Virus record (IMG/VR): IMGVR_UViG_3300000115_000005
Direction: 5' to 3' (one strand)
Source of the DNA: a virus
DNA: 64,000 bases
The position numbers and the translations under genes are program-made. The notes under the pieces were generated by a model. It ran no database searches. It saw only the letters and a list, made by a program, of their open reading frames with translations, and was not told the DNA's origin. Position 1 is the first letter of the stretch. The number at the start of each line of letters is the position of its first letter. Of the stretch, positions 12,607 through 55,407 are shown in pieces.

Positions 12607-12923
12607 TTAAGAAACTTTTTCTTCTTCTCATAGTCTTAAGCTTTAGTGTAGGTGCGGTACCACCACCAAGAGGTGTTGATCCTGTTGAAGCAAAAAAACG
12701 TGAAAGAATTAATAAGATACAAAGAGAGAAAGATCGTAGAGATGATATGTGGTGTTATATCAAACAGAAAAAGAAATTATCTGATGGTGGGTTTCAATGT
12801 ATATACACTTGTCCAGCTAGATGGAAAAATGGTAAAAGGCCTGAACCACATATAGAAAGTAATAATGTGGGACCAGGTTTTGGTTGCCCTAGTTCAATGA
12901 ATGTTTTAAGGAGAGGTAGATGA
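12606..12923 (+). CDS. Secreted Cys-motif protein with apparent ATT start (105 aa, not in ORF track)
   Basis: (M)KKLFLLLIVLSFSVGA signal peptide, WC...CIYTC...GCP; GGAGG at 12592-12596; fills the gap exactly with overlaps at both ends. Confidence 0.65.
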   Translation: MKKLFLLLIVLSFSVGAVPPPRGVDPVEAKKRERINKIQREKDRRDDMWCYIKQKKKLSDGGFQCIYTCPARWKNGKRPEPHIESNNVGPGFGCPSSMNVLRRGR

Positions 12924-13291
12924 TTAGGATAATAAATGCAATTGTAATACCAATTTGGTTTATACTTTTTATTTGGATCTTTACATCAACACAAGTATTA
13001 GCAAGTAATAGCGTTCAAGATACTAGCATTGGAGACAAAGTAGCTGGTGAAAAAAGATACAATGTAAATTGTAAGAATTGTCATGGACCTGCCGGTAAAG
13101 GTGCAGCCAGTTATCCTAAAATATCAGGTAAAGAAATGTCTTATATAAAAGATAGATTAGAAACATATAGAAGTGGTAAAGAAATAGGACCTAATTCAGC
13201 TTTAATGATAATGATGGCAAAATCATTGACTGATGAAGAAATAAATAATTTAGCTGCGTATCTTAAAGATGCAAAATATATGGTGAAATAA
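12920..13291 (+). CDS. Monoheme class I c-type cytochrome (c553/c4-like)
   Basis: CKNCHG heme motif, YPKISG, axial Met region ALMIMMA, LTDEEINNLAAY; N-terminal signal/TM. Confidence 0.92.
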   Translation: MIRIINAIVIPIWFILFIWIFTSTQVLASNSVQDTSIGDKVAGEKRYNVNCKNCHGPAGKGAASYPKISGKEMSYIKDRLETYRSGKEIGPNSALMIMMAKSLTDEEINNLAAYLKDAKYMVK

Positions 13292-13635
13292 TGAAACAAT
13301 TATTAGTAATGTTTACAATGTGGTTTGTATTATGTAGTGGTTTAATTTTTATTGCTAATGAAGCAACAGCGGCTTCATGTGGAAGTCCTTTTAGTGGTAA
13401 TCCACAAGCACCAAGATGGGATTTAATTAAAGCAGAAATTGACAAAGCAAATAAACATGAATATTATAGACCAGTACAAGTAAGAGAAAATATATTAGTT
13501 CATGTTTTATATGATGAAGAAAGAGAATATATTGTAATAAGTAAAACTGCTTCAATGTTAGTTCCTGAAGCTAGAGAACAATTCAAAATAGCTGTAAGAG
13601 AATGGATAAAAAAAGGAATCGAATATGGAAGTTAA
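13291..13635 (+). CDS. Secreted hypothetical protein
   Basis: Signal-peptide-like N-terminus; coupled ORF. Confidence 0.55.
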
Positions 13636-14029
13636 TCAAGAAACATTACAATTGATGGATCCTTTAGCAAAAATGCCAGAACAAGAAATGCCGGTTCCAT
13701 TTGTACTTGCTGAGAGTGCAGCTAAAAAAGTAAAAGAATTAATTAGGGAAAGTGGTGAAGAAGCTTCTCGAATGATGTTAAGAGTATTTGTACAAGGAGG
13801 AGGATGTTCTGGATTTCAATATGGCTTTTCTTTTGCTGAAGAGATAGAAGAAGATGATACTAAAGTAGAAAAGTTTGGTGTCACTATGTTAGTAGATAGT
13901 ATGAGTTATGGTTACTTGGTTGGTTCAGAAATCTATTATAAAGATGATCTTAATGGGTCACAATTTGTAATAAGAAATCCAAACGCCAAAGCAACTTGTG
14001 GGTGTGGTTCTAGTTTCGCTGCCGGTTAA
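13625..14029 (+). CDS. erpA: A-type Fe-S carrier ErpA/IscA
   Basis: [17 protein letters not shown] and [14 protein letters not shown]. Confidence 0.93.
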
Positions 14030-14249
14030 CAACTTTTAGAACATCTCTGTATTGGGTGAAGTGTAATTCATTCTCAACAAAATCTAAGAACTCACCAACA
14101 GTCCAATGGCTTATTGACTCACATTGTTTTTTATAATGCACAAATACAGTTAAGTTTTCTATATCTGAGATTGTTCTACTTATAGTAATCTTATCGTCAC
14201 CGTTTAAATTATTTTTAAGTATTGTAATATTTCTATCTCTAATGTTCAT
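14010..14249 (-). CDS. Hypothetical protein
   Basis: ORF coupled to the upstream gene. Confidence 0.45.
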
Positions 14250-15208
14250 TAAAATCCATTCGGTACTATTATGTAATGTATTGAAAGAACTATGCCTACT
14301 GAAGCACCTAATCCAATCATCATCTTAAAAAAATCTTTAGTGATAATAGGAAAGACTACTTTAAATTTACCATTACCTGTAACTGTAGCCATTGCAAGTT
14401 CACGACCACAAAGTAACCCAACAAATACCCATGTTGTTGACATTGGTATATCGTTTAGCTCTTTGAAAAACCATAATATAATAAAGTAAACACCATCAAT
14501 GATTGTTGCACTTCTTACATATCTAGTATTATGTTTTGATAATACTATTTGTTGAATTTTACCCCCACCTTCACGAAACATAAAACCTAAACCCATTACA
14601 AATAATAATGATATAGCAACCATTAAGTCCCATGGAATCACTCTAGGAAGGAATACAGCTATGTTTGCCATATCATGACCAAGCCATGTAAACCATAAAC
14701 AACCTGTGGTAAACCATTGGCCTATTCGCCAGTACCTTTTATGTTCTTCCTTGACATGATCAAACTCATTAAGTATTTTTGAAACTATAATCCAAATAAG
14801 ATAGGCTGCTACAGCTGCAACTGCATATCCCATCATAGACTTCATCAACATTTTTTCTAATACAAATGACGAGGCAAAAGCTGACAATACGAGAAAACTT
14901 GTACTAACTGGAATACCTACTCTGGTTAGTATTAATAGGATACCTGGTGCCATTGCATGATACCATTGAATCTCTTGAAAAGGTATTTTGTTTAATCGGC
15001 CATAACTTATATCACCACCATTAGTATACCAACCAAACCATAATGTATAAAGTAATACTGCACTTGCAAATCCCCAAAGAATTTTCCAATTAAATCTTTC
15101 TTTATTAGAAGCAATCCATGTTCCAAGTGTTTGAACAGAATCATTTGCAATTACAGCGTAACCAGCAAAAATAAAACCTACTGCCATCCAGAGAGTCATA
15201 ACGTCCAT
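14249..15208 (-). CDS. Polytopic membrane protein, PiT/PHO4 phosphate-permease-like
   Basis: About 9-10 TM segments; internally duplicated motifs IANDSVQTLG...PVSTS and HDMANIAV...PMSTT resemble the PiT signatures. Confidence 0.6.
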   Translation of the reverse strand: MDVMTLWMAVGFIFAGYAVIANDSVQTLGTWIASNKERFNWKILWGFASAVLLYTLWFGWYTNGGDISYGRLNKIPFQEIQWYHAMAPGILLILTRVGIPVSTSFLVLSAFASSFVLEKMLMKSMMGYAVAAVAAYLIWIIVSKILNEFDHVKEEHKRYWRIGQWFTTGCLWFTWLGHDMANIAVFLPRVIPWDLMVAISLLFVMGLGFMFREGGGKIQQIVLSKHNTRYVRSATIIDGVYFIILWFFKELNDIPMSTTWVFVGLLCGRELAMATVTGNGKFKVVFPIITKDFFKMMIGLGASVGIVLSIHYIIVPNGF

Positions 15209-15222
15209 ATTGTTTCTATCCC

Positions 15223-15246
15223 AAAAAAAACCCCGCCTAAGCGGGG
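15223..15246 (-). terminator. Rho-independent terminator of pqqA
   Basis: CCCCGC-TTAG-GCGGGG followed by T8. Confidence 0.9.
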
Positions 15247-15264
15247 TATCGTTAGCTAATAATA

Positions 15265-15342
15265 CTACTTAGATGCAACGTACATTGTGATTTCAAATCC
15301 AAATCTTAAATCAGTCGCTGCTGGCTTAGTCCATTTATTCAT
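15265..15342 (-). CDS. pqqA: PQQ precursor peptide PqqA (25 aa, not in ORF track)
   Basis: [25 protein letters not shown]: W-x-K-P leader, R-F-G-F and E-x-x-x-Y core; AGGAGG RBS upstream; terminator downstream. Confidence 0.96.
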
Positions 15343-15442
15343 AATGCCTCCTATATTAAATGGGTTATATAATAATTTAGTAAATGTTAGTGATATATGA
15401 TATAAAGAAAATCATGAGTTTCATATGATCTTAGTATAAACA

Positions 15443-15757
15443 CTAATCCTCTTTATTTTCTAATTTAGTGTCGTATGAATCTTCCCTACTATAATTTGTC
15501 TTTTTATTTAACTCATACATAGTATCTATACCTGTTTTTTCATCAACTTTTGTATAAACATCATTCCAAAATTGTTTTTTTGACAAATAACGAATTTGAT
15601 TCTCATCCATTTCTGAGCAGTTCACTAAAACCGTTGGTAATTGTTCATGCCAGTTGTCCATACCAACTTTTGATGCTTCAATTGCTTGCTTTTCACTATC
15701 AGCTTCAATTACATAGTAGTTTCTTGTGATCTCAAGCGTTTCGATCACATATTTCAT
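15443..15757 (-). CDS. Hypothetical protein
   Basis: ORF in operon. Confidence 0.55.
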   Translation of the reverse strand: MKYVIETLEITRNYYVIEADSEKQAIEASKVGMDNWHEQLPTVLVNCSEMDENQIRYLSKKQFWNDVYTKVDEKTGIDTMYELNKKTNYSREDSYDTKLENKED

Positions 15758-16038
15758 GCTGTTTCCTTTTCTGTAAGTGTAGCTGTAGTGTAATTTCTAA
15801 CAGAATCCCAACGAAATGAGCGCCATTCTTGCTTTTCTAGATCAAGAACGGGTTGAGCTTTCGTATTTGCATCAAATTTTGGCTCAGTTTTCATTTTTGT
15901 GCCAAATTTTGCTACAAGAGCACCCGGATTTAGCGTACATATCATTTTTCTACGCTCTTTATTTAATTTTTCAAAAATAATTTCGACTTTGCCTTCTTCA
16001 AGGTCGTTAAATAGTTTCTTTTTGTTATTTGGACTCAT
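15754..16038 (-). CDS. SH3/WYL-like beta-barrel phage protein
   Basis: F.K...E.R.M.CTL...DLEKQEWRSFR motif. Confidence 0.7.
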   Translation of the reverse strand: MSPNNKKKLFNDLEEGKVEIIFEKLNKERRKMICTLNPGALVAKFGTKMKTEPKFDANTKAQPVLDLEKQEWRSFRWDSVRNYTTATLTEKETA

Positions 16039-16486
16039 TTATTTTATCTCCAAGAATTGATTTCAACATATTTGTTACTTTTTTATTATACATTCTTAGT
16101 TTAATGTTTGTCAAGTAGGTTTCAAACCATTTGCCTGAAGTTTTTGTCTTACGAATGATTGCTCCGTAGACTCCGTGACCTGTAAGATTCATTATATAGC
16201 CCACAGGGTCGCCTAAAATTGCTTCAAATGAGCAATCAAACTCTGGATTATTCATTTTACTCGTTTTTAGCAAACAAATGTGATACTTATCGCCTAGTTT
16301 TGTGTTTTCGATTGGTTCGTGCGAGGCGTTTTTTTCAGTTACACTAAAATATTTGAAATCAAAGCCTTCTTCTTCATCATCTATTATTGGTAAAAAATAG
16401 AATCCATCATATTTCTCTGGAGCATCACTTTTATTCATCATATAATTTTTCTTATAAAGCTTTTTTGTAAAAAATGTGTGTGTCAA
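16025..16486 (-). CDS. Hypothetical protein
   Basis: ORF in operon; true start may be internal. Confidence 0.55.
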   Translation of the reverse strand: MTHTFFTKKLYKKNYMMNKSDAPEKYDGFYFLPIIDDEEEGFDFKYFSVTEKNASHEPIENTKLGDKYHICLLKTSKMNNPEFDCSFEAILGDPVGYIMNLTGHGVYGAIIRKTKTSGKWFETYLTNIKLRMYNKKVTNMLKSILGDKINESK

Positions 16487-17078
16487 TTTTATCTATTCTA
16501 TATTTTGGCGCCGCCCAATTTGGACTTACATAATCAGCGTGATAATATAGTGCGTGTTGAAAGTTTTTCAACTCAAGACCACGGCTTAAAATTTTATATG
16601 CCATTTGTTTCGATTTTTTCCAAAGAGGACCTTTAGGATGTTTCCAACGAATTGAACGATTATTTGCCCATGAGAATTGATGGTGAGCCATAACAACTTT
16701 ACAGATTGAATCGCCCCAACGTCCACTTCTAAGTCTATTAAGAGTAACTTGTGCTACAGCTATTTTACCAAAGTCACTTTCTACGCCTGCTTCATGGTAA
16801 ATATTTTTTGCTAAACAGAATAAATCAATTGATTTGTATGTTACTGGATCTGGAACTGTGATCAACTCGTACTTGTCTTTTAAATCATCTATTTTATCTT
16901 GTTGTTCAATATTCAGCTCTTTGATTTTAACAATACTCTCTCTAATCTGATTTATTTCAACAAAGACTTGTTTGTCTCTTTGATATTTTATATCAAAATA
17001 AAGATAAAAAATTAAAATAGTAAGTAGGCTTAGAGATATAACTGCACCTAAGATTGTATGATACTGTTTCTTTTCCAT
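16452..17078 (-). CDS. SleB/Hydrolase_2 cell-wall hydrolase with N-terminal TM anchor
   Basis: CLAKNIYHEA, AVAQVTLNR, QFSW, YYHADYV.P.W, IDTHIFY. Confidence 0.9.
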   Translation of the reverse strand: MEKKQYHTILGAVISLSLLTILIFYLYFDIKYQRDKQVFVEINQIRESIVKIKELNIEQQDKIDDLKDKYELITVPDPVTYKSIDLFCLAKNIYHEAGVESDFGKIAVAQVTLNRLRSGRWGDSICKVVMAHHQFSWANNRSIRWKHPKGPLWKKSKQMAYKILSRGLELKNFQHALYYHADYVSPNWAAPKYRIDKIDTHIFYKKAL

Positions 17079-17079
17079 A

Positions 17080-17295
17080 TTAGACCCTTATGAAAACTCC
17101 TACACCATAAACTAAAAACAAAAACATATTCATAATAAACAATGCCCAATCTTTTACGATATAAGCATATATCAAATATAAGAATGTTCCTAAACTAAGA
17201 AAAATAACACTAAAAGGTTGTATGTTGAAGGTAACAAATGTTGCACCTAACATAATGCAAAAGACACCACCCCAACGTAGTATTATATTTATCAC
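17080..17295 (-). CDS. Small three-TM membrane protein
   Basis: Hydrophobic; KD.AL..MN pattern. Confidence 0.55.
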   Translation of the reverse strand: MINIILRWGGVFCIMLGATFVTFNIQPFSVIFLSLGTFLYLIYAYIVKDWALFIMNMFLFLVYGVGVFIRV

Positions 17296-18518
17296 GCAAT
17301 CTTTTTCTGTATTTCAATCACATTATCTAAAGGATGAACTTTATTGAAAGAGTGGCCTTTCTGGTACTTTTTATATTGTCTGTCAACCTCAGAAGCAGAG
17401 ATAAACTTAGATACATCATCAAACTCTGTATCTTGCACAAAAAAATTGATACTGATAATCATATCCCAAAGACCATTAGTTGTATTCCATTTACATCTAT
17501 TTTTATTACCTAATTTATTCCTGTTTAATGACATCCTGTCTAGTGCTTTATGAATTGATTCCAAAAGATTGTATCTTTTTTTCACTAAATCATCATTATT
17601 TTTAGGCCTCTCACCTAAATGAACATACAATCTACTTCTACAACCAAATTGAAATTCATTTCTGGCAACAGCTGCAATTACATCTCTATCAATCATATTA
17701 CCTCTCATGACAATATTGACTATTCTTTCACCATTTGGATAATCTCTCGTTTTAACAACATCTGTCGAATTCTCGGGTTTACCATTAACCCACTCAGGTG
17801 CATTTGTATATCTTTTACCTGCTTTGTTAGGACCCTCACCATATAAGTGTTGTTTGATTAATTTTGCATCTAAGAGTTCAAACTTTACTTTTTTATTTAA
17901 CGCACCAAAAACTCTTTTTAAAATTTTGGTTCTACCAGCTTCTTTAGAAGAGGGACTCATATCTTTGATAATTTTAAGTACGTCATTTTCATCATTGGGT
18001 AATTTACCTTGAATATGTAAATCAATCAAACAAGATTCGATATCCTTTTCTTCTTGTTTAACATGAGGTTTTTCATCATTAGTTCGACCTCCAACAACAG
18101 CTTTTGCTACTGCATTATCGAACTCAAAAACCTCAAACCAAAACTCAAAATCTGGATTGTCCTCTATGTACATTGTGTATAGAGCATCTATTCTGTGGTG
18201 CCCTGCTACTAAACACCACCTCTTACTTGATTCACACCAATGTATGATTGGTAATTTCTCAGCTGTGTCCCAACCATGCTGTTCAAGATAGTCTTTCAAC
18301 TTTTGTCTATCTGAAGGTGAAATGACTTTTTCTCTATTGTGATTACCATCTTTATCAGATGATGGATTGTAAACATCACTAAGTTTTAATTTTTTACGCC
18401 CTACAAAATGAATTGCAGCTGCGTGTTCTGTATTTACGAAATCTAAATTAGAAGATGGTGTTAATTCATTTATCTTCTTCAACTTATATTGCGAATATTC
18501 TATTGGTGGTAAAAACAT
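17292..18518 (-). CDS. ParB/Srx N-terminal-like domain protein
   Basis: LPII...LVAGHHRIDA motif; has its own early promoter. Confidence 0.6.
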   Translation of the reverse strand: MFLPPIEYSQYKLKKINELTPSSNLDFVNTEHAAAIHFVGRKKLKLSDVYNPSSDKDGNHNREKVISPSDRQKLKDYLEQHGWDTAEKLPIIHWCESSKRWCLVAGHHRIDALYTMYIEDNPDFEFWFEVFEFDNAVAKAVVGGRTNDEKPHVKQEEKDIESCLIDLHIQGKLPNDENDVLKIIKDMSPSSKEAGRTKILKRVFGALNKKVKFELLDAKLIKQHLYGEGPNKAGKRYTNAPEWVNGKPENSTDVVKTRDYPNGERIVNIVMRGNMIDRDVIAAVARNEFQFGCRSRLYVHLGERPKNNDDLVKKRYNLLESIHKALDRMSLNRNKLGNKNRCKWNTTNGLWDMIISINFFVQDTEFDDVSKFISASEVDRQYKKYQKGHSFNKVHPLDNVIEIQKKIA

Positions 18519-18549
18519 AAAAACCTCATAATTTAATTAATATAATATC

Positions 18550-18578
18550 ATTTTAACAAGTAAACACTCAAATGTCAA
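18550..18578 (-). promoter_or_regulatory. Early sigma70-type promoter with adjacent palindrome at 18582-18599
   Basis: TTGACA-17-TAAAAT; TGTTG-N8-CAACA. Confidence 0.8.
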
Positions 18579-18599
18579 GCCTGTTGTTTTTATACAACA

Positions 18600-19085
18600 T
18601 TAATAATAATTGAAATTCATCACGATTCGAGGCAAATCTGTGCTTTCAATAGCTGCGTGTTTTAAATGTGATGGGAAAGTTACCAATCTATTTTCAACTG
18701 ACTCGATCTTTTGCCCACTCTCTTCAAATATTGTATAACCATTATTTGTATTCATATAAAGTATAGATGTTGTATGACCTGGATATAAAGCCATATCATT
18801 ATGAAATCCAGATTGAGCACCACGATTAATATCTGGTTGTAGATTGACTTTTATACGAACATATATTGGATTTTTATTTGCTAGAACTTTAGCTACATTA
18901 GGAAACCAATTAGACGTTGGCACATTTATTTCATATAAAACATGAACAAACTGGTAAAGACCATCATCTGGTTGAGTAGTTTTATTTTCATGATAGTACC
19001 ATGGGAAATAGTTGTCTGCAAATATTTTTTTTAAATCTTTTAAAACTTCTTCACTACAATAATTATCTTCAATTTTTATATTCAT
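18600..19085 (-). CDS. 2OG-Fe(II) oxygenase family protein
   Basis: FHND, ILYMNTNNGYT, ENRLVTF...H, RIVMNFNY. Confidence 0.8.
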   Translation of the reverse strand: MNIKIEDNYCSEEVLKDLKKIFADNYFPWYYHENKTTQPDDGLYQFVHVLYEINVPTSNWFPNVAKVLANKNPIYVRIKVNLQPDINRGAQSGFHNDMALYPGHTTSILYMNTNNGYTIFEESGQKIESVENRLVTFPSHLKHAAIESTDLPRIVMNFNYY

Positions 19086-19366
19086 TATGCGTATTGATCA
19101 AATCTGCCTTTTGGTTGACGTTTTGTTTTCTTTTCAATTGGTGTTACTTTTTTCATCTTCTGTGAATACTTTGTTGAGTATTTTGGATCAGTTGTAGAAA
19201 CTGGTGATGGAAAGAATTTGAAAGGTATCATTTTAAGACCACACATTTATAAGAATGATACCGATTAAACCAATAGTAATTGAATTAAAAATAATTGTGC
19301 CCCATACTAATCTATCAATTTGTTTAATACATTCTTTGTATGAATCAATTGGTGGTATTACTGTTT

Positions 19367-19798: not shown

Positions 19799-19957
19799 AA
19801 CTTTTAAATTCCCTTACTAAACTGTGATTAGGTATTTCGTTCAAATCAGTTGTAATTGCTAAACCGTTATACCGACTTGTGTAAACCATAAAAATTCCAG
19901 AATCTTTTGAAATTTTCCTTTTGTTTTCCATATAGAGTATCTATAAGAATAGTGTAT

Positions 19958-20034
19958 TGGTCGGAGTGAAATGATTTGAACATTTGATCTCCTGCTCCCA
20001 AAGCAGGCGCCTTACCAGACTAGGCCACACTCCG
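19958..20034 (-). tRNA. tRNA-Pro(TGG)
   Basis: CGGAGTG...CCTGC-TTTGGGA-GCAGG...TTCAAAT...CACTCCG-A-CCA; complete cloverleaf with encoded CCA. Confidence 0.93.
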
Positions 20035-20204
20035 TATTATACTAAGTAAAAAGATTAAATAAAACTATACAAAAGCAAAACCAATAAAAAGCAATCCATA
20101 TAAAAACTTTTTCAGTTCTCCATGGGTGTACCAACAATAATAAAAAGTTTGTTCTTTTGTAAAAATTAAATAAACGAATTTTGTTTCTCAAATCAATCTC
20201 CTAA

Positions 20205-21245: not shown

Positions 21246-21355
21246 AATTCTTTATCTCATCACTTTCGTATAAAGAACCAGCTTCTGTATTTTCATATTC
21301 CCATACATGAAAAGTATTATCATATTTTGCAATGAAGTATTTAACTCCATTAAAA

Positions 21356-32430: not shown

Positions 32431-32859
32431 TTATAGATCACCTTCTTTTCTATTTTCACTATAATGAGCATCAAACTTACCTCCAGGATATCTACTCTCG
32501 AGCTTTTCAATATTTTCTTGTATTACTTCATCTGGTTTTAGTCCCATTGCGGTACATGAATTTACCCAATACCAAATAATATCACCTAACTCTCTCTTGA
32601 TATGAAATTGTGTTTTTTCACTCATAGGTTTATCTTGAAATAAACACTTCTTTACAATTTCAGCTAATTCACCACCTTCTGATGCAATACCAATGGCACC
32701 TGTTAATAATCTGGCTGTATTCACACCACTTTTAGAATCAATTGCAGCCATTCTTTCATGTAACTTATTTGTTGAGCCAGAGGTTTCAGAGGTCACCTTA
32801 GTAACAAACTCTTGATATTTTTTTAAATCTATCAATTTATCACCCTTTCTTATTTTCAT
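32431..32859 (-). CDS. mazG: MazG-like nucleoside triphosphate pyrophosphohydrolase
   Basis: GIASEGGELAEIVKK, RELGDIIWY, NIEKLESRYP. Confidence 0.88.
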   Translation of the reverse strand: MKIRKGDKLIDLKKYQEFVTKVTSETSGSTNKLHERMAAIDSKSGVNTARLLTGAIGIASEGGELAEIVKKCLFQDKPMSEKTQFHIKRELGDIIWYWVNSCTAMGLKPDEVIQENIEKLESRYPGGKFDAHYSENRKEGDL

Positions 32860-34511: not shown

Positions 34512-35708
34512 TTAAGCCTTATACTCGGCAGCTTCCTCTGAACCGCTTGTTGCTGAACCTTCAGTATAAGAATGTTTACCTGTTCCTGCTAATGCACCAT
34601 CTTTAACAATAGTGTATTCAGTTCTTTGCTCTTCACCATCAAATAATTTTTCAAGTATTTCTCTCGTACCAGCTGCGTATCTAGCTTGAGCTGTGAGTGA
34701 GGTACCTGATGTATGAGGTGTCATACCATGATGAGGCATACTTCTCCAAGAATGGTCATTTGGTGCAGGTTGTGGGAACCAAACATCACCGGCATAACCA
34801 GCTAATTGACCTGATTCAAGTGCATCAACAATTGCTTGTCTATCACAAATCTTACCACGAGCCGTGTTTACTATGTATGCACCTTTTTTCATTTTTGAAA
34901 TTAATTCTGCATTAAATAGATTTTCGGTTTCAGGGTGTAGTGGGCAATTAATTGTTACAACATCTACCGTGGAAACTAAAGATTCGACATTATCATGATA
35001 AACTAAATTTAACTCTTCTTCTACTTCATCTGATAATTTATGCTTATCAAAATAATGCAATTCAACATCAAAAGCTTTTAGTTTTCTAAGTGCATCTAAT
35101 CCAATACGACCAGCTGCAACTGTACCAACTTTCATACCCTCTAAATCATAAGACCTTGAAACTGCATCAGCAATGTTCCAACCACCTTCATTTACAATCT
35201 TATGTTGAGTATGATAATCTCTAACCAATGCAAGAACCATCATTACAATATGTTCTGCAACTGACCTTGAATTACAGTATGTTACTTCCATCACGTCCAC
35301 GCCATTGTCCATGGCGGCCTGCAAGTCAACGTGATCTGAACCTATACCTGCTGTAATCGCCATTTTTAAGTTTGGTGCTGATTCCATTTTTTCTCTTGTG
35401 AGATAATATGGCCAGAATGGTTGAGATATAACAACATCTGCATCAACTAATTCTTTGTCTGCTGTACAACCTTCTCCATCTTTATCTGAGGTAACGACCA
35501 ACTCATGGCCATTTGATTCTAAAAATTCTCTAAGACCCAATTCACCTGATACACAACCAAGTAATTCACCGGGATTAAAATCAATAGCTTTTGGTGATGG
35601 TAATGTTTGACCATCAGGATATTTTTCAATTACTGGTAGATTTTCTATTGCATAATCTTTTGGCATACCACCAGTTGGATCGTCATATAAAATACATAAA
35701 ACTTTCAT
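34512..35708 (-). CDS. fdh: NAD-dependent formate dehydrogenase (metal-independent)
   Basis: KVLCILYDDP, LLGCVSGELGL, ISQPFWPYY, AGIGSDHVD, AAGRIG, NTARG, GDVWFPQPAP, PHTSG; Asp in YFDKH indicates NAD preference. Confidence 0.96.
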   Translation of the reverse strand: MKVLCILYDDPTGGMPKDYAIENLPVIEKYPDGQTLPSPKAIDFNPGELLGCVSGELGLREFLESNGHELVVTSDKDGEGCTADKELVDADVVISQPFWPYYLTREKMESAPNLKMAITAGIGSDHVDLQAAMDNGVDVMEVTYCNSRSVAEHIVMMVLALVRDYHTQHKIVNEGGWNIADAVSRSYDLEGMKVGTVAAGRIGLDALRKLKAFDVELHYFDKHKLSDEVEEELNLVYHDNVESLVSTVDVVTINCPLHPETENLFNAELISKMKKGAYIVNTARGKICDRQAIVDALESGQLAGYAGDVWFPQPAPNDHSWRSMPHHGMTPHTSGTSLTAQARYAAGTREILEKLFDGEEQRTEYTIVKDGALAGTGKHSYTEGSATSGSEEAAEYKA

Positions 35709-35940: not shown

Positions 35941-36735
35941 TTAGCCTCTTGTTGTATTTGCAAGGTCTTCCATCATCTCTTTTTGTTTTAGATCAAGACT
36001 TGCAAGTTTCTTTTCATATTCACCGATAGGGTGATCATATACACCTCTAAAAAATTGAAGTTTTTTAAAAGCGGTAAATCTACCTCTTAAACCATCTTTA
36101 ATTCTTTGCCATGGGCTTAAACCATCACGAATATTTCCATAATAGTTTAAATATTCCAATGTACCATGGTGCTTGAAAAACAAGAAAGATGGGGGTACTT
36201 TTGTAACAGCATCATTGTTGTTTACCCAACGGTGATGATCGAAGCTAAGACTATTTACAAATCTTTTATTACCAACTCTAGGTGAACCAAAAGTGTATAG
36301 TGTTAATGATTTAAAAATGCCTTGTAATCTGGCGGCACAAATAGTGGCCATTGCGGCTCCTAAACTATGACCAGTTATAGTACAAACTTTACCTTTATGC
36401 TCATCAACATAAGTTTCAATTTGATCCCATAATTTTTCAAGTTCACCATAAAATCCATCATGAACTCTACCAGCAACCTGACTCTTTTGTTTCCATGCCT
36501 TTAAGTCAGCAACAACATCACTTGCTACATCAGGTTCAGTACCTCTGAATACAAATGTTATCTCATTATCACTTGTGCAAACATAAGCTTGAGCACCATC
36601 GTGGTCAAGAAAGTCAACTGTTTTATAGTTCATTTCTTTCATAATTTGACTTTGTATATTAGTAGTCAAATCTTCATAAACGAGGCTAGATAATTCACAA
36701 TATTTTAAATCGTTATATCTCAAATCGGTTTTCAT
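35941..36735 (-). CDS. Lipase class 3 (alpha/beta hydrolase)
   Basis: FRGTE, VHDGF, TGHSLGAA, TFGSPRVGN, D.V..VP, DH..EY. Confidence 0.9.
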   Translation of the reverse strand: MKTDLRYNDLKYCELSSLVYEDLTTNIQSQIMKEMNYKTVDFLDHDGAQAYVCTSDNEITFVFRGTEPDVASDVVADLKAWKQKSQVAGRVHDGFYGELEKLWDQIETYVDEHKGKVCTITGHSLGAAMATICAARLQGIFKSLTLYTFGSPRVGNKRFVNSLSFDHHRWVNNNDAVTKVPPSFLFFKHHGTLEYLNYYGNIRDGLSPWQRIKDGLRGRFTAFKKLQFFRGVYDHPIGEYEKKLASLDLKQKEMMEDLANTTRG

Positions 36736-36742
36736 AATACTC

Positions 36743-37153
36743 CTAATTTAGTTTTTCAATTCTAACTTTTACATCATTAGTTTTATCTTTATAGTTCTGA
36801 ACAGCAGCTTTGATGGCATCTTCAGCTAAAATTGAGCAATGTATTTTTACTGGTGGTAAACATAGTTCTTTTGCAATCTCAACATTCTTAATTGATTCTG
36901 CATCATCAATCGTTCTACCTTTTACCCATTCAGTCATTAAACTACTGCTTGCTATGGCTGAACCACAGCCATATGTTTTAAATTTTGCATCTGTAATGAT
37001 ACCATCATCATTTACTTTTATTTGTAATTTCATTACATCACCACAGGCCGGTGCACCGACCATACCCGTACCAACATCTGAGTCATTCTTATTCATTGAT
37101 CCTACATTTCTAGGATTTTCATAATGATCTATAACTTTTTCGCTATATGCCAT
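36743..37153 (-). CDS. iscU: Fe-S cluster scaffold IscU
   Basis: MAYSEKVIDHYENPRNVG, APACGDVM, FKTYGCGSAIASSS, LPPVKIHC. Confidence 0.96.
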   Translation of the reverse strand: MAYSEKVIDHYENPRNVGSMNKNDSDVGTGMVGAPACGDVMKLQIKVNDDGIITDAKFKTYGCGSAIASSSLMTEWVKGRTIDDAESIKNVEIAKELCLPPVKIHCSILAEDAIKAAVQNYKDKTNDVKVRIEKLN

Positions 37154-48645: not shown

Positions 48646-48661
48646 TTCTTTTTCTCCTTGT

Positions 48662-48970
48662 TTAGCAGTTCCATTTTCTTAAAGCTTTATTAATTCGGCT
48701 ATCTGGATCTCTAGCTGTTTTAGCTGAGGTTAGCTTCTTTTTCATGCCTTTCATTCTCCGGCAGAATGATAATCTTCTCTTAGCAGACTTTGAACCTTTT
48801 TTTAATTTACTTGGTTTTGTTGTAACTGCTGTTTGTAACTTTGATCCTGGATTTTCACGGCGATATGAGTCAACACCTTTTTGGTTTAAACCACCATCTG
48901 GATCTTTGCCAGCGGACCTTGTCCATGCAGGTGATTTATCTTCCTCTATAAACTGTATAAATTTTTTCAT
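48662..48970 (-). CDS. Conserved basic phage protein with capsid-targeting-like N-terminus
   Basis: MKKFIQFIEE; KSPAW.R..GK...GGLN.KG...RRLSFC.RM...ALRKWNC. Confidence 0.7.
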   Translation of the reverse strand: MKKFIQFIEEDKSPAWTRSAGKDPDGGLNQKGVDSYRRENPGSKLQTAVTTKPSKLKKGSKSAKRRLSFCRRMKGMKKKLTSAKTARDPDSRINKALRKWNC

Positions 48971-50853
48971 TACCCTGTTCCTGGAAATCGTTTTGCTCTA
49001 AAAGTTTTTAAATTAATACCAACTTTTTTAAGTTCATCTTCCTTTTGTGCTGAAATAGAAGCCGTAGTAGTATCACCTGTAAGTTCTTTAAACGGTATTA
49101 CTACACCTTTTTTTAATCGACCTTTATTGGTCAAACTATTATATTCTTTAGAATATGAATTAAGAGCCATTCCAGGTTCTATACCTTTGTCTATGGATTC
49201 ATATTGCGTGGTTTTCTCGGACGCCTTCTTTTCCGAGAGTTCGTTTGGTTTGTAGTATTCGCTATCTTGTGACCCGAAGTACCATGCGTTAAATGTGTTG
49301 TTGACATTCTTGGTTCCGAGTTTGCTCTTTTTTGTTTTATGTGATACTGCCTCGGAAAATTCTCTCTCAAGAACTCGTCCAAAGCTTTGTCTATTTCCTC
49401 TTTGATCACTTTCCTTATCATATTTCCAATCATATTCATTACTTAAATCCTCCTTCGTTATTTTACCTTTACCAAAATTAGAGACCATTACAGGTTTACC
49501 ACCTTTTCCTGGTCTATTTGCAACTGGGTCATGTTTACGCTTCACACGAACAGCAGCTGCACGTTCTTTTTTAGAAAGCTTAGCTCTCTTTTCTTTTGAC
49601 ATACATTTTGGTTTTGGCTCACCTGGCTTTCTTGCACATGGTCCAGCTACATTACCTTTTGAGTCGATTCTTTTCCAATCACCTTGTGGATGATCTTTAG
49701 AAAACCATTGCCTCAAATCTTCATCAAATGTATCTTCAAATAATTCATCAATACCTTTTATGTTATTGGACATTTTATCCTCTAACCATTCTTTTAAATC
49801 AAATATTCTTTGTTGAAAGTGGTACTCTGTTAAATCTTCTGAGTTATCAAATTCAATGTAATCTTCTTTAAAAACATCTTCAAAATATGGCTTCACCATA
49901 TTTACTAATTCCCATTTTTGATGTCTTAGTTCCTCGTTCATGACTCTTTTTCTAGACTCATTTCTTAATTTTGAAACGTCATTTGTTGTAGAAACAAGAA
50001 CCATTGTTGTTTTATAATTTTGTTCTTCTAATTTTTCTTTTATTTTACTTAAAGTTTTAATCTCATGAGCATTACCATTAATTACAAGGTTTGATCTTTC
50101 ATGAGTATCATATCTTTTTTCCATGATATATTCAAAAGCTTTATCCGTATTCACTTCTCTAAGATTAAAATCTTCTAATACACTTTTGAATATGTAATCT
50201 TTACCAGAACCAGGACCACCAATTAAAAATACTGCAACATCTTCTGCAATCTTCATGCCTTTGCGAGTATCATTGTACATATGTTTTACATGAGAATCAC
50301 TCATTTTTGATGGAGCCCCTGATTTAAATGACTTGTAATCACCTTTAACTGCGTGTCCTCTCATCTTAGTGCCTGACATACCAGATGTAGTTTGACTATC
50401 TGGATCTCTATCACCAGATGAATGTATTGTTATCTTTTTAAAGTTGTATAATGCTTTTGAATGTGTACCATTATATCTATCGAGAGTGTTTTTAAACTCT
50501 GAGACACGGTCTGAACCTGCAACAACGTGTAGGTGTGATACACCTTTTTTATGTAACTTAGCTGCTTGTTTTAAATAATTTGGATTTTCTTTATCTGAAG
50601 TGGATAAATTGGCACGTGGAAATGCCTTCTTAGCGTGTTTTAACTTATCAGTTGGTGAAAGTGGATTTTTATTTTTGTCTTGACTATGAGATAATACAAC
50701 ATGGTGTGAACCACCAACTTGTCTTGCGACTTGTTGCACTTTATTTACAAGTTTTTCATGGCCTTTTGTAATCGGGTTCATTCTACCGAATGACATTACG
50801 GCATGATTATCTTTTTTTGATAGATTTTCATCTATGTAGTCTAGAAATTTCAT
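48970..50853 (-). CDS. HxGH-type nucleotidyltransferase fused to a P-loop kinase and basic C-terminal modules
   Basis: FGRMNPITKGH, VAGSDR, MSGTKMR; IGGPGSGKD Walker A. Confidence 0.75.
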   Translation of the reverse strand: MKFLDYIDENLSKKDNHAVMSFGRMNPITKGHEKLVNKVQQVARQVGGSHHVVLSHSQDKNKNPLSPTDKLKHAKKAFPRANLSTSDKENPNYLKQAAKLHKKGVSHLHVVAGSDRVSEFKNTLDRYNGTHSKALYNFKKITIHSSGDRDPDSQTTSGMSGTKMRGHAVKGDYKSFKSGAPSKMSDSHVKHMYNDTRKGMKIAEDVAVFLIGGPGSGKDYIFKSVLEDFNLREVNTDKAFEYIMEKRYDTHERSNLVINGNAHEIKTLSKIKEKLEEQNYKTTMVLVSTTNDVSKLRNESRKRVMNEELRHQKWELVNMVKPYFEDVFKEDYIEFDNSEDLTEYHFQQRIFDLKEWLEDKMSNNIKGIDELFEDTFDEDLRQWFSKDHPQGDWKRIDSKGNVAGPCARKPGEPKPKCMSKEKRAKLSKKERAAAVRVKRKHDPVANRPGKGGKPVMVSNFGKGKITKEDLSNEYDWKYDKESDQRGNRQSFGRVLEREFSEAVSHKTKKSKLGTKNVNNTFNAWYFGSQDSEYYKPNELSEKKASEKTTQYESIDKGIEPGMALNSYSKEYNSLTNKGRLKKGVVIPFKELTGDTTTASISAQKEDELKKVGINLKTFRAKRFPGTG

Positions 50854-50887
50854 AAGCCTCTGCAGCTAATAAGTTAATTATTTCTGT

Positions 50888-50895
50888 TATTTATA
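50888..50895 (-). promoter_or_regulatory. T4-type late promoter
   Basis: TATAAATA. Confidence 0.75.
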
Positions 50896-50898
50896 CAT

Positions 50899-51657
50899 TT
50901 AAGTTTTTATGGTTAGCACATCTCCATCAACAAATTGTTCTACTCCTGCTTTTTCATCAACTGGTCTAGATGCAGGTACAAATGGTGTATTATCAGAACT
51001 TCCACCACCTTGATTTCTGCCAAACTCTAAAGGTTGTTTCCAATGTATTTCACCTCTTTCAAATACAATTACACTATCATAAAATGTAATTGATTGTGTG
51101 GATCTAGTGAAATCATCTGGTTCTACCTGACCTTTTGTATGATCTGCATTGAGTTTATCAACCAAGTTTTTAGATACATTTACAATTGATTCTGGTTCAT
51201 TTAGACCACCACCATGAGTATCTTTCCAATAAGCTGCGTGTGTATCTTCAACAAGATAAACTCCGTTCTTAGACATCTTTGAGTACAAATACTGGAATGT
51301 TTTGTTTACATGAGCGACTTGATGACTACCATCATCTATGATAATATCAAATTCACCAAATTCATCTACTAACTCTTGTAAAAATTTTTCATCTGATTGA
51401 TCACCGATACGAATAATAGTACCTGGTATTTCATAGTTTGAACAAGATGGTGTTATATCAATTGCAACTATCTTTGAAAGTGGGCCAAAATATTTCTGCC
51501 ACATAGGTAGAGAACCACCATTTAAAACACCAATCTCTAATATCTTTACTGGTTTATTTCTAAACCTTTCAAAATGTTTTTCATATATTGGAAAGTAATG
51601 TGTCCATCTTGTAATTTTATTACCATCATTCTCTAAAAAGTATTTCCATAAATTCAT
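50899..51657 (-). CDS. Class I SAM-dependent (sugar O-)methyltransferase
   Basis: LEIGVLNGGSL, IGDQSD, DIIIDDGSH, YLVED. Confidence 0.85.
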   Translation of the reverse strand: MNLWKYFLENDGNKITRWTHYFPIYEKHFERFRNKPVKILEIGVLNGGSLPMWQKYFGPLSKIVAIDITPSCSNYEIPGTIIRIGDQSDEKFLQELVDEFGEFDIIIDDGSHQVAHVNKTFQYLYSKMSKNGVYLVEDTHAAYWKDTHGGGLNEPESIVNVSKNLVDKLNADHTKGQVEPDDFTRSTQSITFYDSVIVFERGEIHWKQPLEFGRNQGGGSSDNTPFVPASRPVDEKAGVEQFVDGDVLTIKT

Positions 51658-51658
51658 A

Positions 51659-52363
51659 TCAATATTCCTCTGTTTTTCCTGTTCCAGCCATAATACCTTC
51701 AACATACAATCTTTTAAGTTCTACCACATATTTTTTATTCAATTCTCTAAAATGTGCGTGTTCTGTATCTATATTATAAGCCATGCAAGAGTTTAGTGCT
51801 TTGTTTAAAGTTCTAATATAATCATCAATCAAAGAAGGACAAAGTGAAAAAAATCTAGTAATAAACAAGTGATCTGTTACACTTTTATCTGGCATCCAAG
51901 TTTCAATTCTTTCTTTAAAAACGTATTTACCAAATAAATTAGAGTTGTCATATATTCCAATATTAAACTTATCTTGTAATAACGATCTAGCTGAATATTT
52001 GAAAATTCTTTTTACAGAGTATAACAGTTTAGCTAATTCTGGGTGTTGTTTCAATAAAAAAAGTGTCTTAAGCAACAAAGTAATTTCAGCTTCACTCTTT
52101 CTACCAGTCTTAGATAATTCTCTCACTTGTTCATCATGAGCCCAATATACTTGTCCATTAACTAACTTGTCTATTTGATTACTTTTTTCATCTTCTATCC
52201 CTCCAGGTGATCCATCAGAGAGTAGAATATAAGCATTAGGTAGTTTTTCTCTCAGGTTTTTAAGACCATCTAAAGTTTGTTTAAGTCTATCATCTTTACT
52301 AATTACACCGATTGTAGGCTCTAAAGCTGATGTTACAATAAATAAATTTTTATCGGGTATCAT
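51659..52363 (-). CDS. Glycosyltransferase-like hypothetical protein
   Basis: FIVTSA...R..QT, IFKYSAR motif; located in glycan cluster. Confidence 0.5.
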   Translation of the reverse strand: MIPDKNLFIVTSALEPTIGVISKDDRLKQTLDGLKNLREKLPNAYILLSDGSPGGIEDEKSNQIDKLVNGQVYWAHDEQVRELSKTGRKSEAEITLLLKTLFLLKQHPELAKLLYSVKRIFKYSARSLLQDKFNIGIYDNSNLFGKYVFKERIETWMPDKSVTDHLFITRFFSLCPSLIDDYIRTLNKALNSCMAYNIDTEHAHFRELNKKYVVELKRLYVEGIMAGTGKTEEY

Positions 52364-53415
52364 TTACCACTCTTCAACAATGTTAAGTATTGGTCTAAGT
52401 CATCTTTATCTCTTTTAAGATTGATTGCTGTTGCTCTAGGGTATGGGTTTTGATTGTGAAAATCATTTATTAATATCCTATCTGCATTTGGTAACCCAAT
52501 CAATAATTCATAATCTTTAAATCCTAAATTATCAAGTGTAGCTCGTGTATATTCTTCAACTTCTTTTTCTCTTGCTGTAGTAAAAACAAACTTAGATCCA
52601 TTTTTCTGTAAGTCTAAAAGTACCTTTACATTTTTTTCAAGAGGCTTACCTAGTACAGACATTGCATTATTACCGACTCTGCTCTGCGATTTCACAACGG
52701 TGCCATCTATATCACAAAATATAACTGGTTTATTATTCCATTCAAACCAATCATTAGCAGTTCCAACATCTACATAATCTTCCACATATTTTGTGTAGAA
52801 TACTTCTTCGTTATATAAAGCTCTTGCAATTACATCTGATACAAATATTTCACCATCAGTAAGAATTTCTCTATAATTATCTAAGAATACTTTGGCTGAT
52901 TCAAACTTATAACCACCAACACAAAATATATCAGATACAACTTTCTTTTCTATAATTTGGTTTATGATACCTTGTTCATTTGAAATGATAAAACTTTTAG
53001 AGGATAACTTTTTCAATACTTCATGAAATGATATATTAGAAACACAAACATAGTTACCCTCAGTACATTTATGTTTGAAAAAACTATCACAATCCTTGAT
53101 AAAAATTTCATCATTTTCATCTATGGGCATTTTTTCTAATATTTGATAAACAGTTTCAGCAGGTCCTCTTGTAGGATTATCTAAGATTACAATGTTTATT
53201 CTAAATCCATATTGTTCACGAATAAACTCTGAAGCTTGATATGCCTTATCATGTTCTTTTAAAATACCAATTGTAATATTATATTTCTCATCATCTAAGA
53301 ATTGTTCTATCGCATTATGAAACATCATCTTATTGTGTCGGCCAAATAAAAGAAATTTTGGTTTCATATTAGGAAATCTGGAAGAAGCCCCAGCGGCTGG
53401 TATAATTATTTCCAT
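52360..53415 (-). CDS. Sugar nucleotidyltransferase fused to a HAD phosphatase
   Basis: IIPAAGASSRF..KP, DCD; FCDIDGTV, TTAR, LIND. Confidence 0.8.
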   Translation of the reverse strand: MEIIIPAAGASSRFPNMKPKFLLFGRHNKMMFHNAIEQFLDDEKYNITIGILKEHDKAYQASEFIREQYGFRINIVILDNPTRGPAETVYQILEKMPIDENDEIFIKDCDSFFKHKCTEGNYVCVSNISFHEVLKKLSSKSFIISNEQGIINQIIEKKVVSDIFCVGGYKFESAKVFLDNYREILTDGEIFVSDVIARALYNEEVFYTKYVEDYVDVGTANDWFEWNNKPVIFCDIDGTVVKSQSRVGNNAMSVLGKPLEKNVKVLLDLQKNGSKFVFTTAREKEVEEYTRATLDNLGFKDYELLIGLPNADRILINDFHNQNPYPRATAINLKRDKDDLDQYLTLLKSGK

Positions 53416-54152
53416 AAACGATTTATCTCCTTCAATATAAACTTTCTATTACTATCTCCATTTTCAGTATGTAAATAAACTCTTAACAACATAAGAATTA
53501 AAAGATAATCATTTTTTGCAAAACCAAATTTACTAAAAACTTGGTCTTCCAGATTTTGTAACTTAACATCTAACTTAATATTTTTGTTTCTTAAAAACCA
53601 CCTACAAGTTAAATCTTGCCTTAATTTGGCTAGGTCGAATACATACGAATCATATTCAATTGTAACTGGATCTATCATTGTAAAGGATTCTTCATTAAAA
53701 ATCAAGTTTTCTAGGGTAAAGTCGCCATGATATGTTGACCTTGGCAAGTGACTTGGCAATCTATCAATGAGTTCCTTTTTTATAAAAGGTAAATCATCTA
53801 CTGAATCAATCCAATCAAGCTTTGTGTCATAGACATTACTATAATCCACTTTTATAGCGTCTTTAGCAAATGAATCTATTGTTTGAATTATAAAATTACC
53901 TAATCTCTTTGTACTTCTAGTTTTTAGGTACTCCAAAATATCAAGACCATGAATATACTCCATCTCAATATAGTTTTCAGATGAGTCATATATTGCTGGA
54001 ACATTGTAACCTTTTTCATTTAGACCTATTAACCTTTCAATATTTCTTTCCACATTGCCATTCTTTCTTACAAAAAATTCTTTATCGTCTTTTATAAGTA
54101 ATATTTCAGAACCCGAATGTCCAATAAATTCTTTTACTATCTTTTTTTCCAT
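53406..54152 (-). CDS. APH/choline-kinase-like phosphotransferase
   Basis: GHSGS, HGDFTLEN, MIDP, DLAKLRQD. Confidence 0.8.
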   Translation of the reverse strand: MEKKIVKEFIGHSGSEILLIKDDKEFFVRKNGNVERNIERLIGLNEKGYNVPAIYDSSENYIEMEYIHGLDILEYLKTRSTKRLGNFIIQTIDSFAKDAIKVDYSNVYDTKLDWIDSVDDLPFIKKELIDRLPSHLPRSTYHGDFTLENLIFNEESFTMIDPVTIEYDSYVFDLAKLRQDLTCRWFLRNKNIKLDVKLQNLEDQVFSKFGFAKNDYLLILMLLRVYLHTENGDSNRKFILKEINRLWK

Positions 54153-54835
54153 TTAGCACAATCATCACGAATTAAACTATGCCAGGTTCCATTAAAATCA
54201 CCTGGAGGGAATGGATTATTCATATCCACATATGTCAAAAATTTACCATGTAACCCATACTCATGTAAATGGGCTTTCATCATATCTTCACCGATCATTG
54301 AAACCTTTTGATCGTAATAGTGGTTCATATTATTGTAAATAGTCATTCTCTTATTCATAATATTAGATGAGCTAAATGCAAATTGATCGTTACCAAAATC
54401 TTTTTCTGGAACCATTCTACAATTTGGTATATAAAGTACCCATGGATTCATTTTATAGAATGGTATAACAATATTTAAAGCATAATCAGGCCTCGATTTA
54501 ATCACCCAATCATAATTCTTTTTTAATTCCATTTCTTTTTTAATTTTTAATTCACAGGACCTCTGCATACTATAAAGCATTGACACCGTAAAACGAGGTG
54601 GGTGGTTTATAGCATCTGGAGTATTTTTATATCTTTCATCATAATCACCTTTAAGTTCATTTTCTAGAAGAGATGAAACTGGTTTATATAATTTTATATA
54701 CTCTTCAGCTTCATCAGAATTCCATGAATGTATAAATGTATCAACATCATAGTGATCTAGTAAATTCTTCTTGTGATATTCATAACCTTTTTCAAAACTT
54801 CTAGGTTGACCGGATAAACATAGGGCTATTTTCAT
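54137..54835 (-). CDS. Putative glycosyltransferase
   Basis: KIALCLSGQPR, YDWVIKSRPD, NDQFA. Confidence 0.65.
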   Translation of the reverse strand: MKIALCLSGQPRSFEKGYEYHKKNLLDHYDVDTFIHSWNSDEAEEYIKLYKPVSSLLENELKGDYDERYKNTPDAINHPPRFTVSMLYSMQRSCELKIKKEMELKKNYDWVIKSRPDYALNIVIPFYKMNPWVLYIPNCRMVPEKDFGNDQFAFSSSNIMNKRMTIYNNMNHYYDQKVSMIGEDMMKAHLHEYGLHGKFLTYVDMNNPFPPGDFNGTWHSLIRDDCAKWKKR

Positions 54836-55407
54836 TTTGAATACTTTAAATTAATTTTAGAGTGGTGTTGTTCATCAGCTCTAACTTTTTTAATTAAATC
54901 AGAAAGTTTAGCATCTTCTTGCATTTGATAATACTCAATTGCTCTTTTAGGTGCAGGCACGTTTTCAATTTGTCCATTCTCAACCATATAGAGGTATTCT
55001 GTGTAAGACTTAACTGCTTCACGTTCAAAATAAAAAATCATTTTGTGTGCGGTTTTAGGAAAAAATACATAAAGAAAAAAATAAAAGACCCAAAAAGTTG
55101 CCTGTGAAAAAATAACTAACCATCTTTCAAAGAAATTAGGTCTAGCTATTTCTATAAAAAACATTAAATGTTGTCTTTCATTTTCGGCTTCTGCAATTAA
55201 TTCTCTAATCATAGGTCCATGGCCAGTTTCCATTTTTCTTAAACTTCTCAAATGAATCCACATTCCTGCAACAATACCAGGAACTCCAGCTACAGTTTCT
55301 AGAACTACAGCTCTATGACCATATCTCTTAGCAAAAAAAGTGTCTGCCAAAAATCTAAAAAACTTTGTCATTGATTTAGCAAACCAATCTGATATTTTTC
55401 TTTTCAT
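54832..55407 (-). CDS. aox: Alternative oxidase (di-iron ubiquinol oxidase)
   Basis: LETVAGVPG, EAENERQHL, FEREAVKSY, RADEQHH; start reassigned to 55407. Confidence 0.92.
   Translation of the reverse strand: MKRKISDWFAKSMTKFFRFLADTFFAKRYGHRAVVLETVAGVPGIVAGMWIHLRSLRKMETGHGPMIRELIAEAENERQHLMFFIEIARPNFFERWLVIFSQATFWVFYFFLYVFFPKTAHKMIFYFEREAVKSYTEYLYMVENGQIENVPAPKRAIEYYQMQEDAKLSDLIKKVRADEQHHSKINLKYSK

Follow-up and report, generated by a model that had tools for sequence, protein, structure and literature searches.

A recurrent, shuffled set of redox helper genes in an uncultured marine T4-like phage

Introduction

Viral helper genes for photosynthesis are textbook knowledge; those that bear on the respiration of heterotrophs are poorly charted. 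Can such respiratory genes form a set, and if so, which host pathway would they serve? This question is raised by a 64,000-nt stretch (hereafter the window, whose coordinates are used throughout) of the virus record IMGVR_UViG_3300000115_000005, which encodes six host-type proteins: PqqA, the precursor peptide of pyrroloquinoline quinone (PQQ), a c-type cytochrome, the iron-sulfur (Fe-S) proteins ErpA and IscU, an NAD-dependent formate dehydrogenase (FDH), and an alternative oxidase (AOX). A first-pass annotation, made from the sequence alone, had read the six genes as one distributed module that supports methanol oxidation in a methylotrophic host. Here, we find that five of them are recurrently linked in related phages and that cellular relatives of the cytochrome are partnered with a PQQ-dependent sugar dehydrogenase.

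Results

Six host-type genes in a T4-like backbone

As for the six genes, family profiles bear out the first-pass annotation. All open reading frames (ORFs) are present and intact at the positions given in Table 1, within a T4-like backbone, and they pass the curated family cut-offs wherever these exist. ErpA retains its ligand cysteines (in GGGCSG and TCGCGSSF), as does IscU (ACGD, GCGS, and LPPVKIHCS, the last including the chaperone-binding LPPVK), which places both within their families. FDH, likewise a clear family member, displays a Rossmann AAGRIG motif and a YFDKH motif with the Asp for NAD specificity. The motifs LET, NERQH, FEREA, and RADEQHH of AOX correspond to the E, ExxH, E, ExxH ligand pattern, from which a di-iron quinol oxidase is predicted. 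In PqqA, the conserved E-x-x-x-Y cross-link pair is readable as EITMY, and the gene has an AGGAGG ribosome-binding site and a terminator composed of a GC hairpin and a T-run. Rather than heading a pqqBCDE operon, this orphan gene is terminated separately, and no pqqB-E genes were found in the window or in its relatives. Between nrdA and nrdB lies a tight co-directional array of IscU, a class-3 lipase gene, a 77-aa ORF, and FDH.

The phage residence of these genes is evident from their surroundings. The window contains a T4-like replication core (UvsX, gp41, and gp61) together with nrdAB and ThyX, and its flanks (~35 kb) hold gp43, gp44/62, gp45, RegA, gp32, gp59, and baseplate genes. These T4 core replication genes, in conserved order, are those of a T4-like marine phage (Kyanoviridae-like). 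The closest deposited phages by gp41 are cyanomyophages and the OM43 phage Melnitz, at only 58-62% identity, and near and distant searches of the phage collection returned no relative at the DNA level. GC content is 30-35% throughout, except in a gene for a glycine-rich protein.

The window contig is not chimeric, since many independently assembled metagenome contigs, two of them ~149 kb long, have its gene order. An FDH protein identical to that of the window, with identical neighbors, occurs in 15 metagenome contigs, and the FDH region is also found in a contig of 149,753 bp. UvsX with AOX downstream is present in 18 contigs, including TARA scaffold_78 (149,127 bp), and an independent JGI contig (L331) matches the ErpA-permease-PqqA segment at 100% identity.

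Five of the genes are recurrently linked

PqqA, the cytochrome, ErpA, IscU, and FDH form a recurrently linked set in related phages, with shuffled orders and at several genome sites. In one relative (G194, locus L146), cytochrome c-ErpA-PqqA is syntenic with the window, while others have orf114-ErpA-permease-PqqA (G195), a contiguous cytochrome c-ErpA-FDH-PqqA (G193), or, over 144 kb of sequence (G196), a contiguous IscU-ErpA-cytochrome c with PqqA 10 kb off. ErpA adjoins the cytochrome, IscU, or PqqA in many related phages. IscU adjoins FDH, either directly upstream or one lipase gene away, at 16 of the 69 FDH-bearing IMG/VR loci (FDH identity 75-96%), three of which also have an IscA-like gene after FDH. 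On phage-like metagenome contigs, FDH stands beside PqqA in 9 cases, and 13 contigs contain ErpA. In a further contig (VMHT01171994.1, 1635-6099; L324), dihaem cytochrome c-PqqA-FDH-peroxiredoxin is convergent with orf104-cytochrome c-IscU-ErpA (3.5 kb), the cytochrome c, IscU, and ErpA genes of the second group overlapping stop to start. No more compact form of the cassette was encountered; its dihaem cytochrome c has 177 aa, and its peroxiredoxin is of the Redoxin/AhpC-TSA type.

AOX falls outside this pattern. Phage C48C1, on which we found no literature, has only AOX and IscU of the set. Of the distributed module proposed at first, five genes thus reassociate across related phages, in changing orders; AOX does not, nor does the methanol-specific story hold, as described next.

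Cellular partners of the cytochrome

Support for the entry step of methanol oxidation had been a central element of the methylotroph proposal. Three observations speak against it. First, no XoxF/MxaF methanol dehydrogenase (TIGR03075) was found among the large ORFs of the window, in the Pfam lists of the ~35-kb flanks, or in 10 related viral records. FDH is the only gene of a one-carbon (C1) pathway in the ~99 of ~149 kb of the phage genome that were surveyed at the Pfam level. Second, the cytochrome scores 26.3 bits against TIGR03874 (methanol-related c-type cytochrome; cut-off 161.75) and 16.9 bits against TIGR04494 (PedF c550; cut-off 122); judged by these profiles, it is not XoxG/cL-like. 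Third, its cellular partners are of another kind. Relatives of the cytochrome in the protein collection carry the name “cytochrome c553” (the Atlas places it in “Pseudomonadota” only), and in five of five cellular contexts opened the relative, 56-82% identical, lies directly upstream of a gene for a PQQ sugar/sorbosone dehydrogenase of the GSDH family (PF07995). These pairs come from a 2.85-Mb genome (L184), two other long contigs (L185 and L186), marine TARA contigs of 29% GC (L187-189), and one more locus (L190). At L186, a pqqABCDE operon adjoins the cytochrome-GSDH pair. GSDH itself was not found in the related viral records.

PqqA distribution and the host

True stand-alone PqqA peptides are encoded by 35 IMG/VR contigs. 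Scans of IMG/VR for the exact pqqA DNA and with a strict pattern gave no match. A scan for PqqA of the window type returned 54 metagenome contigs. About 10 of these are cellular, marine, and low in GC (0.32-0.39), and in them pqqBCDE is preceded by a PqqA with 90% identity to that of the window. Around these operons lie genes for a two-component system, for an ABC-2 transporter, and for the alpha subunit of a molybdenum FDH together with a NuoF-like subunit, and the best genome match of their PqqC (70%) is to the only genome in its family and order. That the phage carries a PqqA so close to the operon copy of low-GC marine bacteria indicates a host that makes PQQ. A SAR11 (Pelagibacterales) host is unlikely, since none of 151 Pelagibacterales genomes has PqqC over the cut-off.

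Among 50,697 phage records, 12 contain pqqA: nine cultured Methylophilales/Methylophilaceae (OM43/LD28) phages, one uncultured Caudoviricetes, and two Acinetobacter “phage MD-2021a” contigs that resemble host DNA. The five cultured methylophage copies that we read share EMRFGFEVTMYVMNK, and the signature of the window PqqA differs. All cultured Methylophilales/Methylophilaceae phages in the collection have the gene (MT375522, MZ577095-98, MW452941, OP830906/7, and KX815270); in the five records opened, it is either unannotated or overlapped by an opposite-strand “hypothetical protein” call.

Another candidate host was the lineage of the single-amplified genome (SAG) AH-326-M18 (G005), which has the best cellular AOX (68% identity) and ErpA (63%). 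It was dropped because PqqC and XoxF are absent from its order (0 of 37 species) and because IscU identity is uninformative. In this order of ~1-Mb marine gammaproteobacterial genomes (L191-L194), 23 of 37 encode a GSDH-family PQQ dehydrogenase and none encodes PqqC over the cut-off; these bacteria may depend on PQQ from outside.

Ancestry of FDH, AOX, and IscU

The window FDH is 78-82% identical to the FDH of many Pelagibacteraceae single-cell genomes. The 69 IMG/VR contigs that carry FDH are real viral contexts, since only the 1.2-kb FDH gene is common to them and the SAR11 loci. In a tree of 164 sequences, the window FDH belongs to a 25-row viral clade (local SH-like support 99%), which is nested among Pelagibacteraceae and Fonsibacter in a larger clade of 53 rows; its ancestry is of the SAR11 type. 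There are two further viral FDH clades, one adjoining a SAR86 single-cell genome and the other a gammaproteobacterial one (SAG AH-326-M18); these two cellular sequences (L028 and L034) each stand beside a separate viral clade and not together. The topology suggests that phages have mediated the spread of FDH among streamlined marine bacteria.

AOX has a different history. Of 151 Pelagibacterales genomes, 60 encode an AOX, with 51-58% identity to the window protein; one genome of the SAR11 order reaches 66%, and the best cellular match is 68%, in SAG AH-326-M18. Some of the genomes sampled carry an unpublished flag (G116, G236, G338, G492, and G504), and of all figures given here only the 66% depends on one of these. 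In comparison, ~120 short metagenomic AOX sequences are 73-81% identical to it. Those sampled (P0188 and P0167) lie on phage-like contigs at varied genome positions, with nrdAB/Cpn10/S21 as neighbors in one phage and radical-SAM genes in another. The AOX tree groups the window sequence with many other short metagenomic AOX, in a large clade that is separate from the six cellular sequences in the tree; the three AOX of this clade with inspected contexts are phage-borne. Scanning IMG/VR with single-sequence AOX patterns gave no match.

IscU shares 73-78% identity with its counterpart in the SAG AH-326-M18 lineage. Since it is equally close (75-80%) to any gammaproteobacterial IscU, including those of Acinetobacter and Salmonella, this reveals an “ISC type” only. 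The IscU match in the SAR11 genome G001 is SufU-like and only 45% identical, and this genome has no ErpA. With FDH inside Pelagibacterales, AOX in a short metagenomic clade, and IscU placed no more closely than among gammaproteobacteria, the common Methylophilaceae donor once envisaged for these genes finds no support in this comparison, which contained no named Methylophilaceae sequences.

Neighboring genes

Several genes next to the set are conserved with it. The product of orf114 is 87-97% identical and syntenic in three relatives (L156, L297, and L309). The 319-aa membrane protein encoded next to pqqA has no Pfam match, but the Atlas clusters to which it belongs, some of them viral, carry the name “phosphate/sulfate permease family”; relatives encode it at the corresponding position with 90-93% identity, and PQQ or phosphate transport are possible roles. 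The lipase gene between IscU and FDH holds its position in close relatives (L209-L213 and L273) and is gone in slightly more distant ones. Just upstream of the cytochrome/ErpA/PqqA island, the glycine-rich protein, partly conserved in relatives, is probably a fiber or surface protein. The window also encodes MazG, which the pelagimyophage survey reports to be absent from pelagimyophages, and a single tRNA.

Table 1. Positions of the six host-type genes and of neighboring features in the window, with the profile matches obtained
Feature	Position	Strand	Evidence and remarks
Class-I cytochrome c, c553 type, periplasmic, 123 aa	12920-13291	+	PF00034, 47.6 bits; PF13442; CKNCH; N-terminal signal-like segment
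ErpA, A-type Fe-S carrier	13625-14029	+	NF010147, 167 bits (cut-off 117)
PqqA, stand-alone PQQ precursor peptide	15265-15342	-	PF08042, 41.9 bits (cut-off 21.1); TIGR02107, 39.6 (cut-off 20)
NAD-FDH, single-subunit, metal-free	34512-35708	-	NF005750, 655 bits (cut-off 329), residues 2-384; between nrdA and nrdB
IscU, Fe-S scaffold	36743-37153	-	TIGR01999, 232 bits (cut-off 192.4)
AOX, short (191 aa), di-iron quinol oxidase	54832-55407	-	PF01786, 215 bits
orf114, 114 aa, secreted-looking	13291-13635	+	No Pfam/NCBIfam match; between cytochrome c and ErpA
Membrane protein, 319 aa, divergent PiT-like phosphate/sulfate permease (lead only)	14249-15208	-	Directly downstream of pqqA terminator
Class-3 lipase-family protein	35941-36735	-	PF01764, 86.6 bits; between IscU and FDH
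Glycine-rich protein, 901 aa	9901-12606	+	PF21722; three repeats; local GC up to 49%
MazG	32431-32859	-	
tRNA-Pro (UGG)	19958-20034	-	

Discussion

What, then, would such genes do together? The explanation that we prefer, and to which as a whole we give an even chance, is that the window comes from the ~149-kb genome of an uncultured marine phage, T4-like (Kyanoviridae-like), with a redox auxiliary metabolic gene set from several donors, in which pqqA, cytochrome c553, ErpA, IscU, and the metal-free NAD-FDH make up a recurrent shuffled cassette. The mechanism, which is read from gene content and presupposes a host with pqqBCDE and a periplasmic PQQ dehydrogenase, would be as follows. Phage PqqA would replenish the peptide that is consumed one-for-one in PQQ synthesis, and IscU and ErpA would supply Fe-S clusters to the radical-SAM enzyme PqqE and to other Fe-S enzymes. 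Cytochrome c553 would accept electrons from the quinoprotein and pass them to a terminal oxidase. By cellular gene context, this quinoprotein would be a GSDH-type sugar/aldose dehydrogenase, with XoxF possible too. The single-subunit FDH would convert formate to NADH without molybdenum or Fe-S cofactors, and AOX, separately acquired, would re-oxidize quinol when the cytochrome path is limiting. More tentatively, and at less than even chance, we propose that the cassette is a mobile “quinoprotein respiration” unit, made up of a PQQ precursor, a c553 acceptor, an Fe-S assembly pair, a cofactor-free FDH, and sometimes a peroxiredoxin and a dihaem cytochrome, which might rewire periplasmic oxidation and respiration during infection of a host that could be heterotroph or methylotroph.

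Several points weigh against the explanation that we prefer. Helper genes that are unrelated to one another accumulate in the hypervariable islands of T4-like phages, so that genes may be neighbors there without a common role. FDH requires no Fe-S cluster, which leaves its tight pairing with IscU without an explanation. No c553 relative was found in 401 sampled Gammaproteobacteria, 201 SAR86-order, and 151 SAR11 genomes, in searches that had no positive control. About 50 kb of the phage's own genome, the structural module, lies outside the survey, and both the FDH and AOX trees were built with FastTree only.

The alternatives differ mainly in the host and in whether a shared pathway exists. 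The first is that the phage infects Methylophilaceae of the OM43 type, took all six genes from this host lineage, and boosts methanol oxidation, with PQQ for XoxF, the cytochrome as XoxF acceptor, and FDH as the final NADH-yielding step. OM43/LD28 phages account for 9 of the 12 pqqA phage records and are the only real phages among those naming a cultured host, Lake Baikal T4-like phages predicted on Methylophilaceae carry methanol dehydrogenase (MDH) and PqqA (PMC7678222), and the 32% GC and marine origin fit a streamlined host. A methylotroph can also own a GSDH-like PQQ enzyme, since the marine methylotroph TMED127 is reported to transcribe a PQQ glucose dehydrogenase in step with xoxF (PMC12542740). 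Moreover, OM43 oxidizes formate with a complex multisubunit FDH (PMC5120137), and thus a metal-free replacement or backup would be sensible in an OM43-like host. However, the FDH is SAR11-type, the PqqA is unlike the type shared by all five cultured methylophage copies read, and the cytochrome, far below the methanol-related and PedF cut-offs, has GSDH and not xoxF as its cellular partner. XoxF is missing from all the phage sequence searched, and the gp41 identity to Melnitz (57.7%), which might suggest kinship with OM43 phages, is no nearer than that to cyanophages. We therefore consider this alternative unlikely.

We judge it equally improbable that the six genes are independent helpers, individually selected and brought together only via permissive insertion hot spots of T4-like genomes, with no shared pathway. 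Heterogeneous donors, an AOX position that differs between phages, and phage C48C1 would all fit, as would the FDH noted alone in a deep pelagimyophage (PMC7029224) and the IscU and A-type carriers of marine T4-like genomes, which have been read as general Fe-S supply (PMC5332604). Yet the same five families reassociate in at least four orders and at different sites (the nrd region, downstream of the glycine-rich gene, and in convergent cassettes), the stop-to-start overlaps in L324 tie the cytochrome, IscU, and ErpA genes to one another, and cytochrome c and pqq genes are neighbors in cells too. Finally, a SAR11 phage in which FDH and AOX are working host-derived genes, and PqqA, the cytochrome, IscU, and ErpA are left from an earlier host or serve the phage's Fe-S needs, is very doubtful: FDH nests in SAR11, two-fifths of Pelagibacterales genomes (60/151) have AOX, 32% GC is SAR11-like, and Melnitz reportedly shows that its phage group can move between SAR11 and OM43, but the 151 genomes lack PqqC over the cut-off and yielded no c553 relative (the search for the latter having no positive control), G001 has its 45% SufU-like IscU match and no ErpA, SAR11 AOX is only 51-58% identical, the MazG of the window contrasts with pelagimyophages, and pqqA retains strong expression signals and is conserved in relatives.

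Parts of the set that we favor have been seen before, one at a time. As in the window, a stand-alone pqqA is present in T4-like low-GC aquatic phages, namely Lake Baikal phages with predicted Methylophilaceae hosts (Coutinho et al. 2020, PMC7678222) and cultured OM43/LD28 phages, where it is read as a PQQ boost for a periplasmic quinoprotein. In contrast to these phages, no MDH was found in the window, its PqqA is of another type, and pqqA is accompanied by cytochrome c553, ErpA, IscU, and FDH. A gammaproteobacterial-type IscU and an A-type carrier occur, as here, in uncultured marine T4-like phages akin to HTVC008M (Nishimura et al. 2017, PMC5332604); the portion of that paper at hand ties them to phage radical-SAM and other Fe-S proteins and does not describe a linkage with FDH, cytochrome c, or PqqA. 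An FDH with a proposed role in energy supply was reported in another marine T4-like phage, a deep-ecotype pelagimyophage (Zaragoza-Solas et al. 2020, PMC7029224). That report concerned one genome and referred to the molybdenum FDH-H, whereas the metal-free NAD-FDH described here is found in at least 69 IMG/VR contigs and three viral clades, often beside IscU. The cellular operon in which cytochrome c553-GSDH lies next to pqqABCDE (L184-L190) resembles the phage arrangement in that PqqA and the cytochrome are neighbors in both, the cellular cytochromes being 56-82% identical to the phage one; unlike it, the phages have neither the dehydrogenase nor pqqB-E.

The comparison with the cyanophage psbA/petE/PTOX set, drawn at the outset, is apt. 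Both sets reside in marine T4-like phages, scatter a soluble electron carrier, a di-iron quinol oxidase, and energy enzymes over the genome, and would keep host energy flow going during infection. The set described here differs in being heterotroph respiratory, with cytochrome c553 for plastocyanin and AOX for PTOX, plus PqqA, IscU, and ErpA for cofactor supply. The expectation of an undescribed system was correct in part. Viral PqqA, IscU/A-type carriers, FDH, and AOX had each been reported singly, AOX/PTOX in cyanophages (PMC12801897), but we found no description of the recurring cassette, of c553 in a GSDH/pqq context, or of how widely NAD-FDH occurs in viruses. What is new is the recurrence of the genes as a cassette, together with the link that the cytochrome provides.

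Together, these findings bear on abundant ocean phages, in which five respiration helper genes recur as one shuffled cassette. The cellular partner of the cytochrome gives a specific path that can be tested, from a PQQ dehydrogenase to c553 to an oxidase. Metal-free FDH is widespread in viruses. Its three clades alternate with sequences of SAR11, SAR86, and a further streamlined gammaproteobacterial lineage, a pattern that suggests transfer of FDH by phages among the most abundant bacteria of the ocean. Should the cassette be expressed, infection could alter the oxidation of formate, sugars, or alcohols, as well as oxygen use, in surface seawater. And if the cassette does serve quinoprotein respiration, it would be a respiratory counterpart of the cyanophage photosynthesis set and would provide the first case in which a soluble cytochrome of a virus is linked with a defined enzyme of the host.

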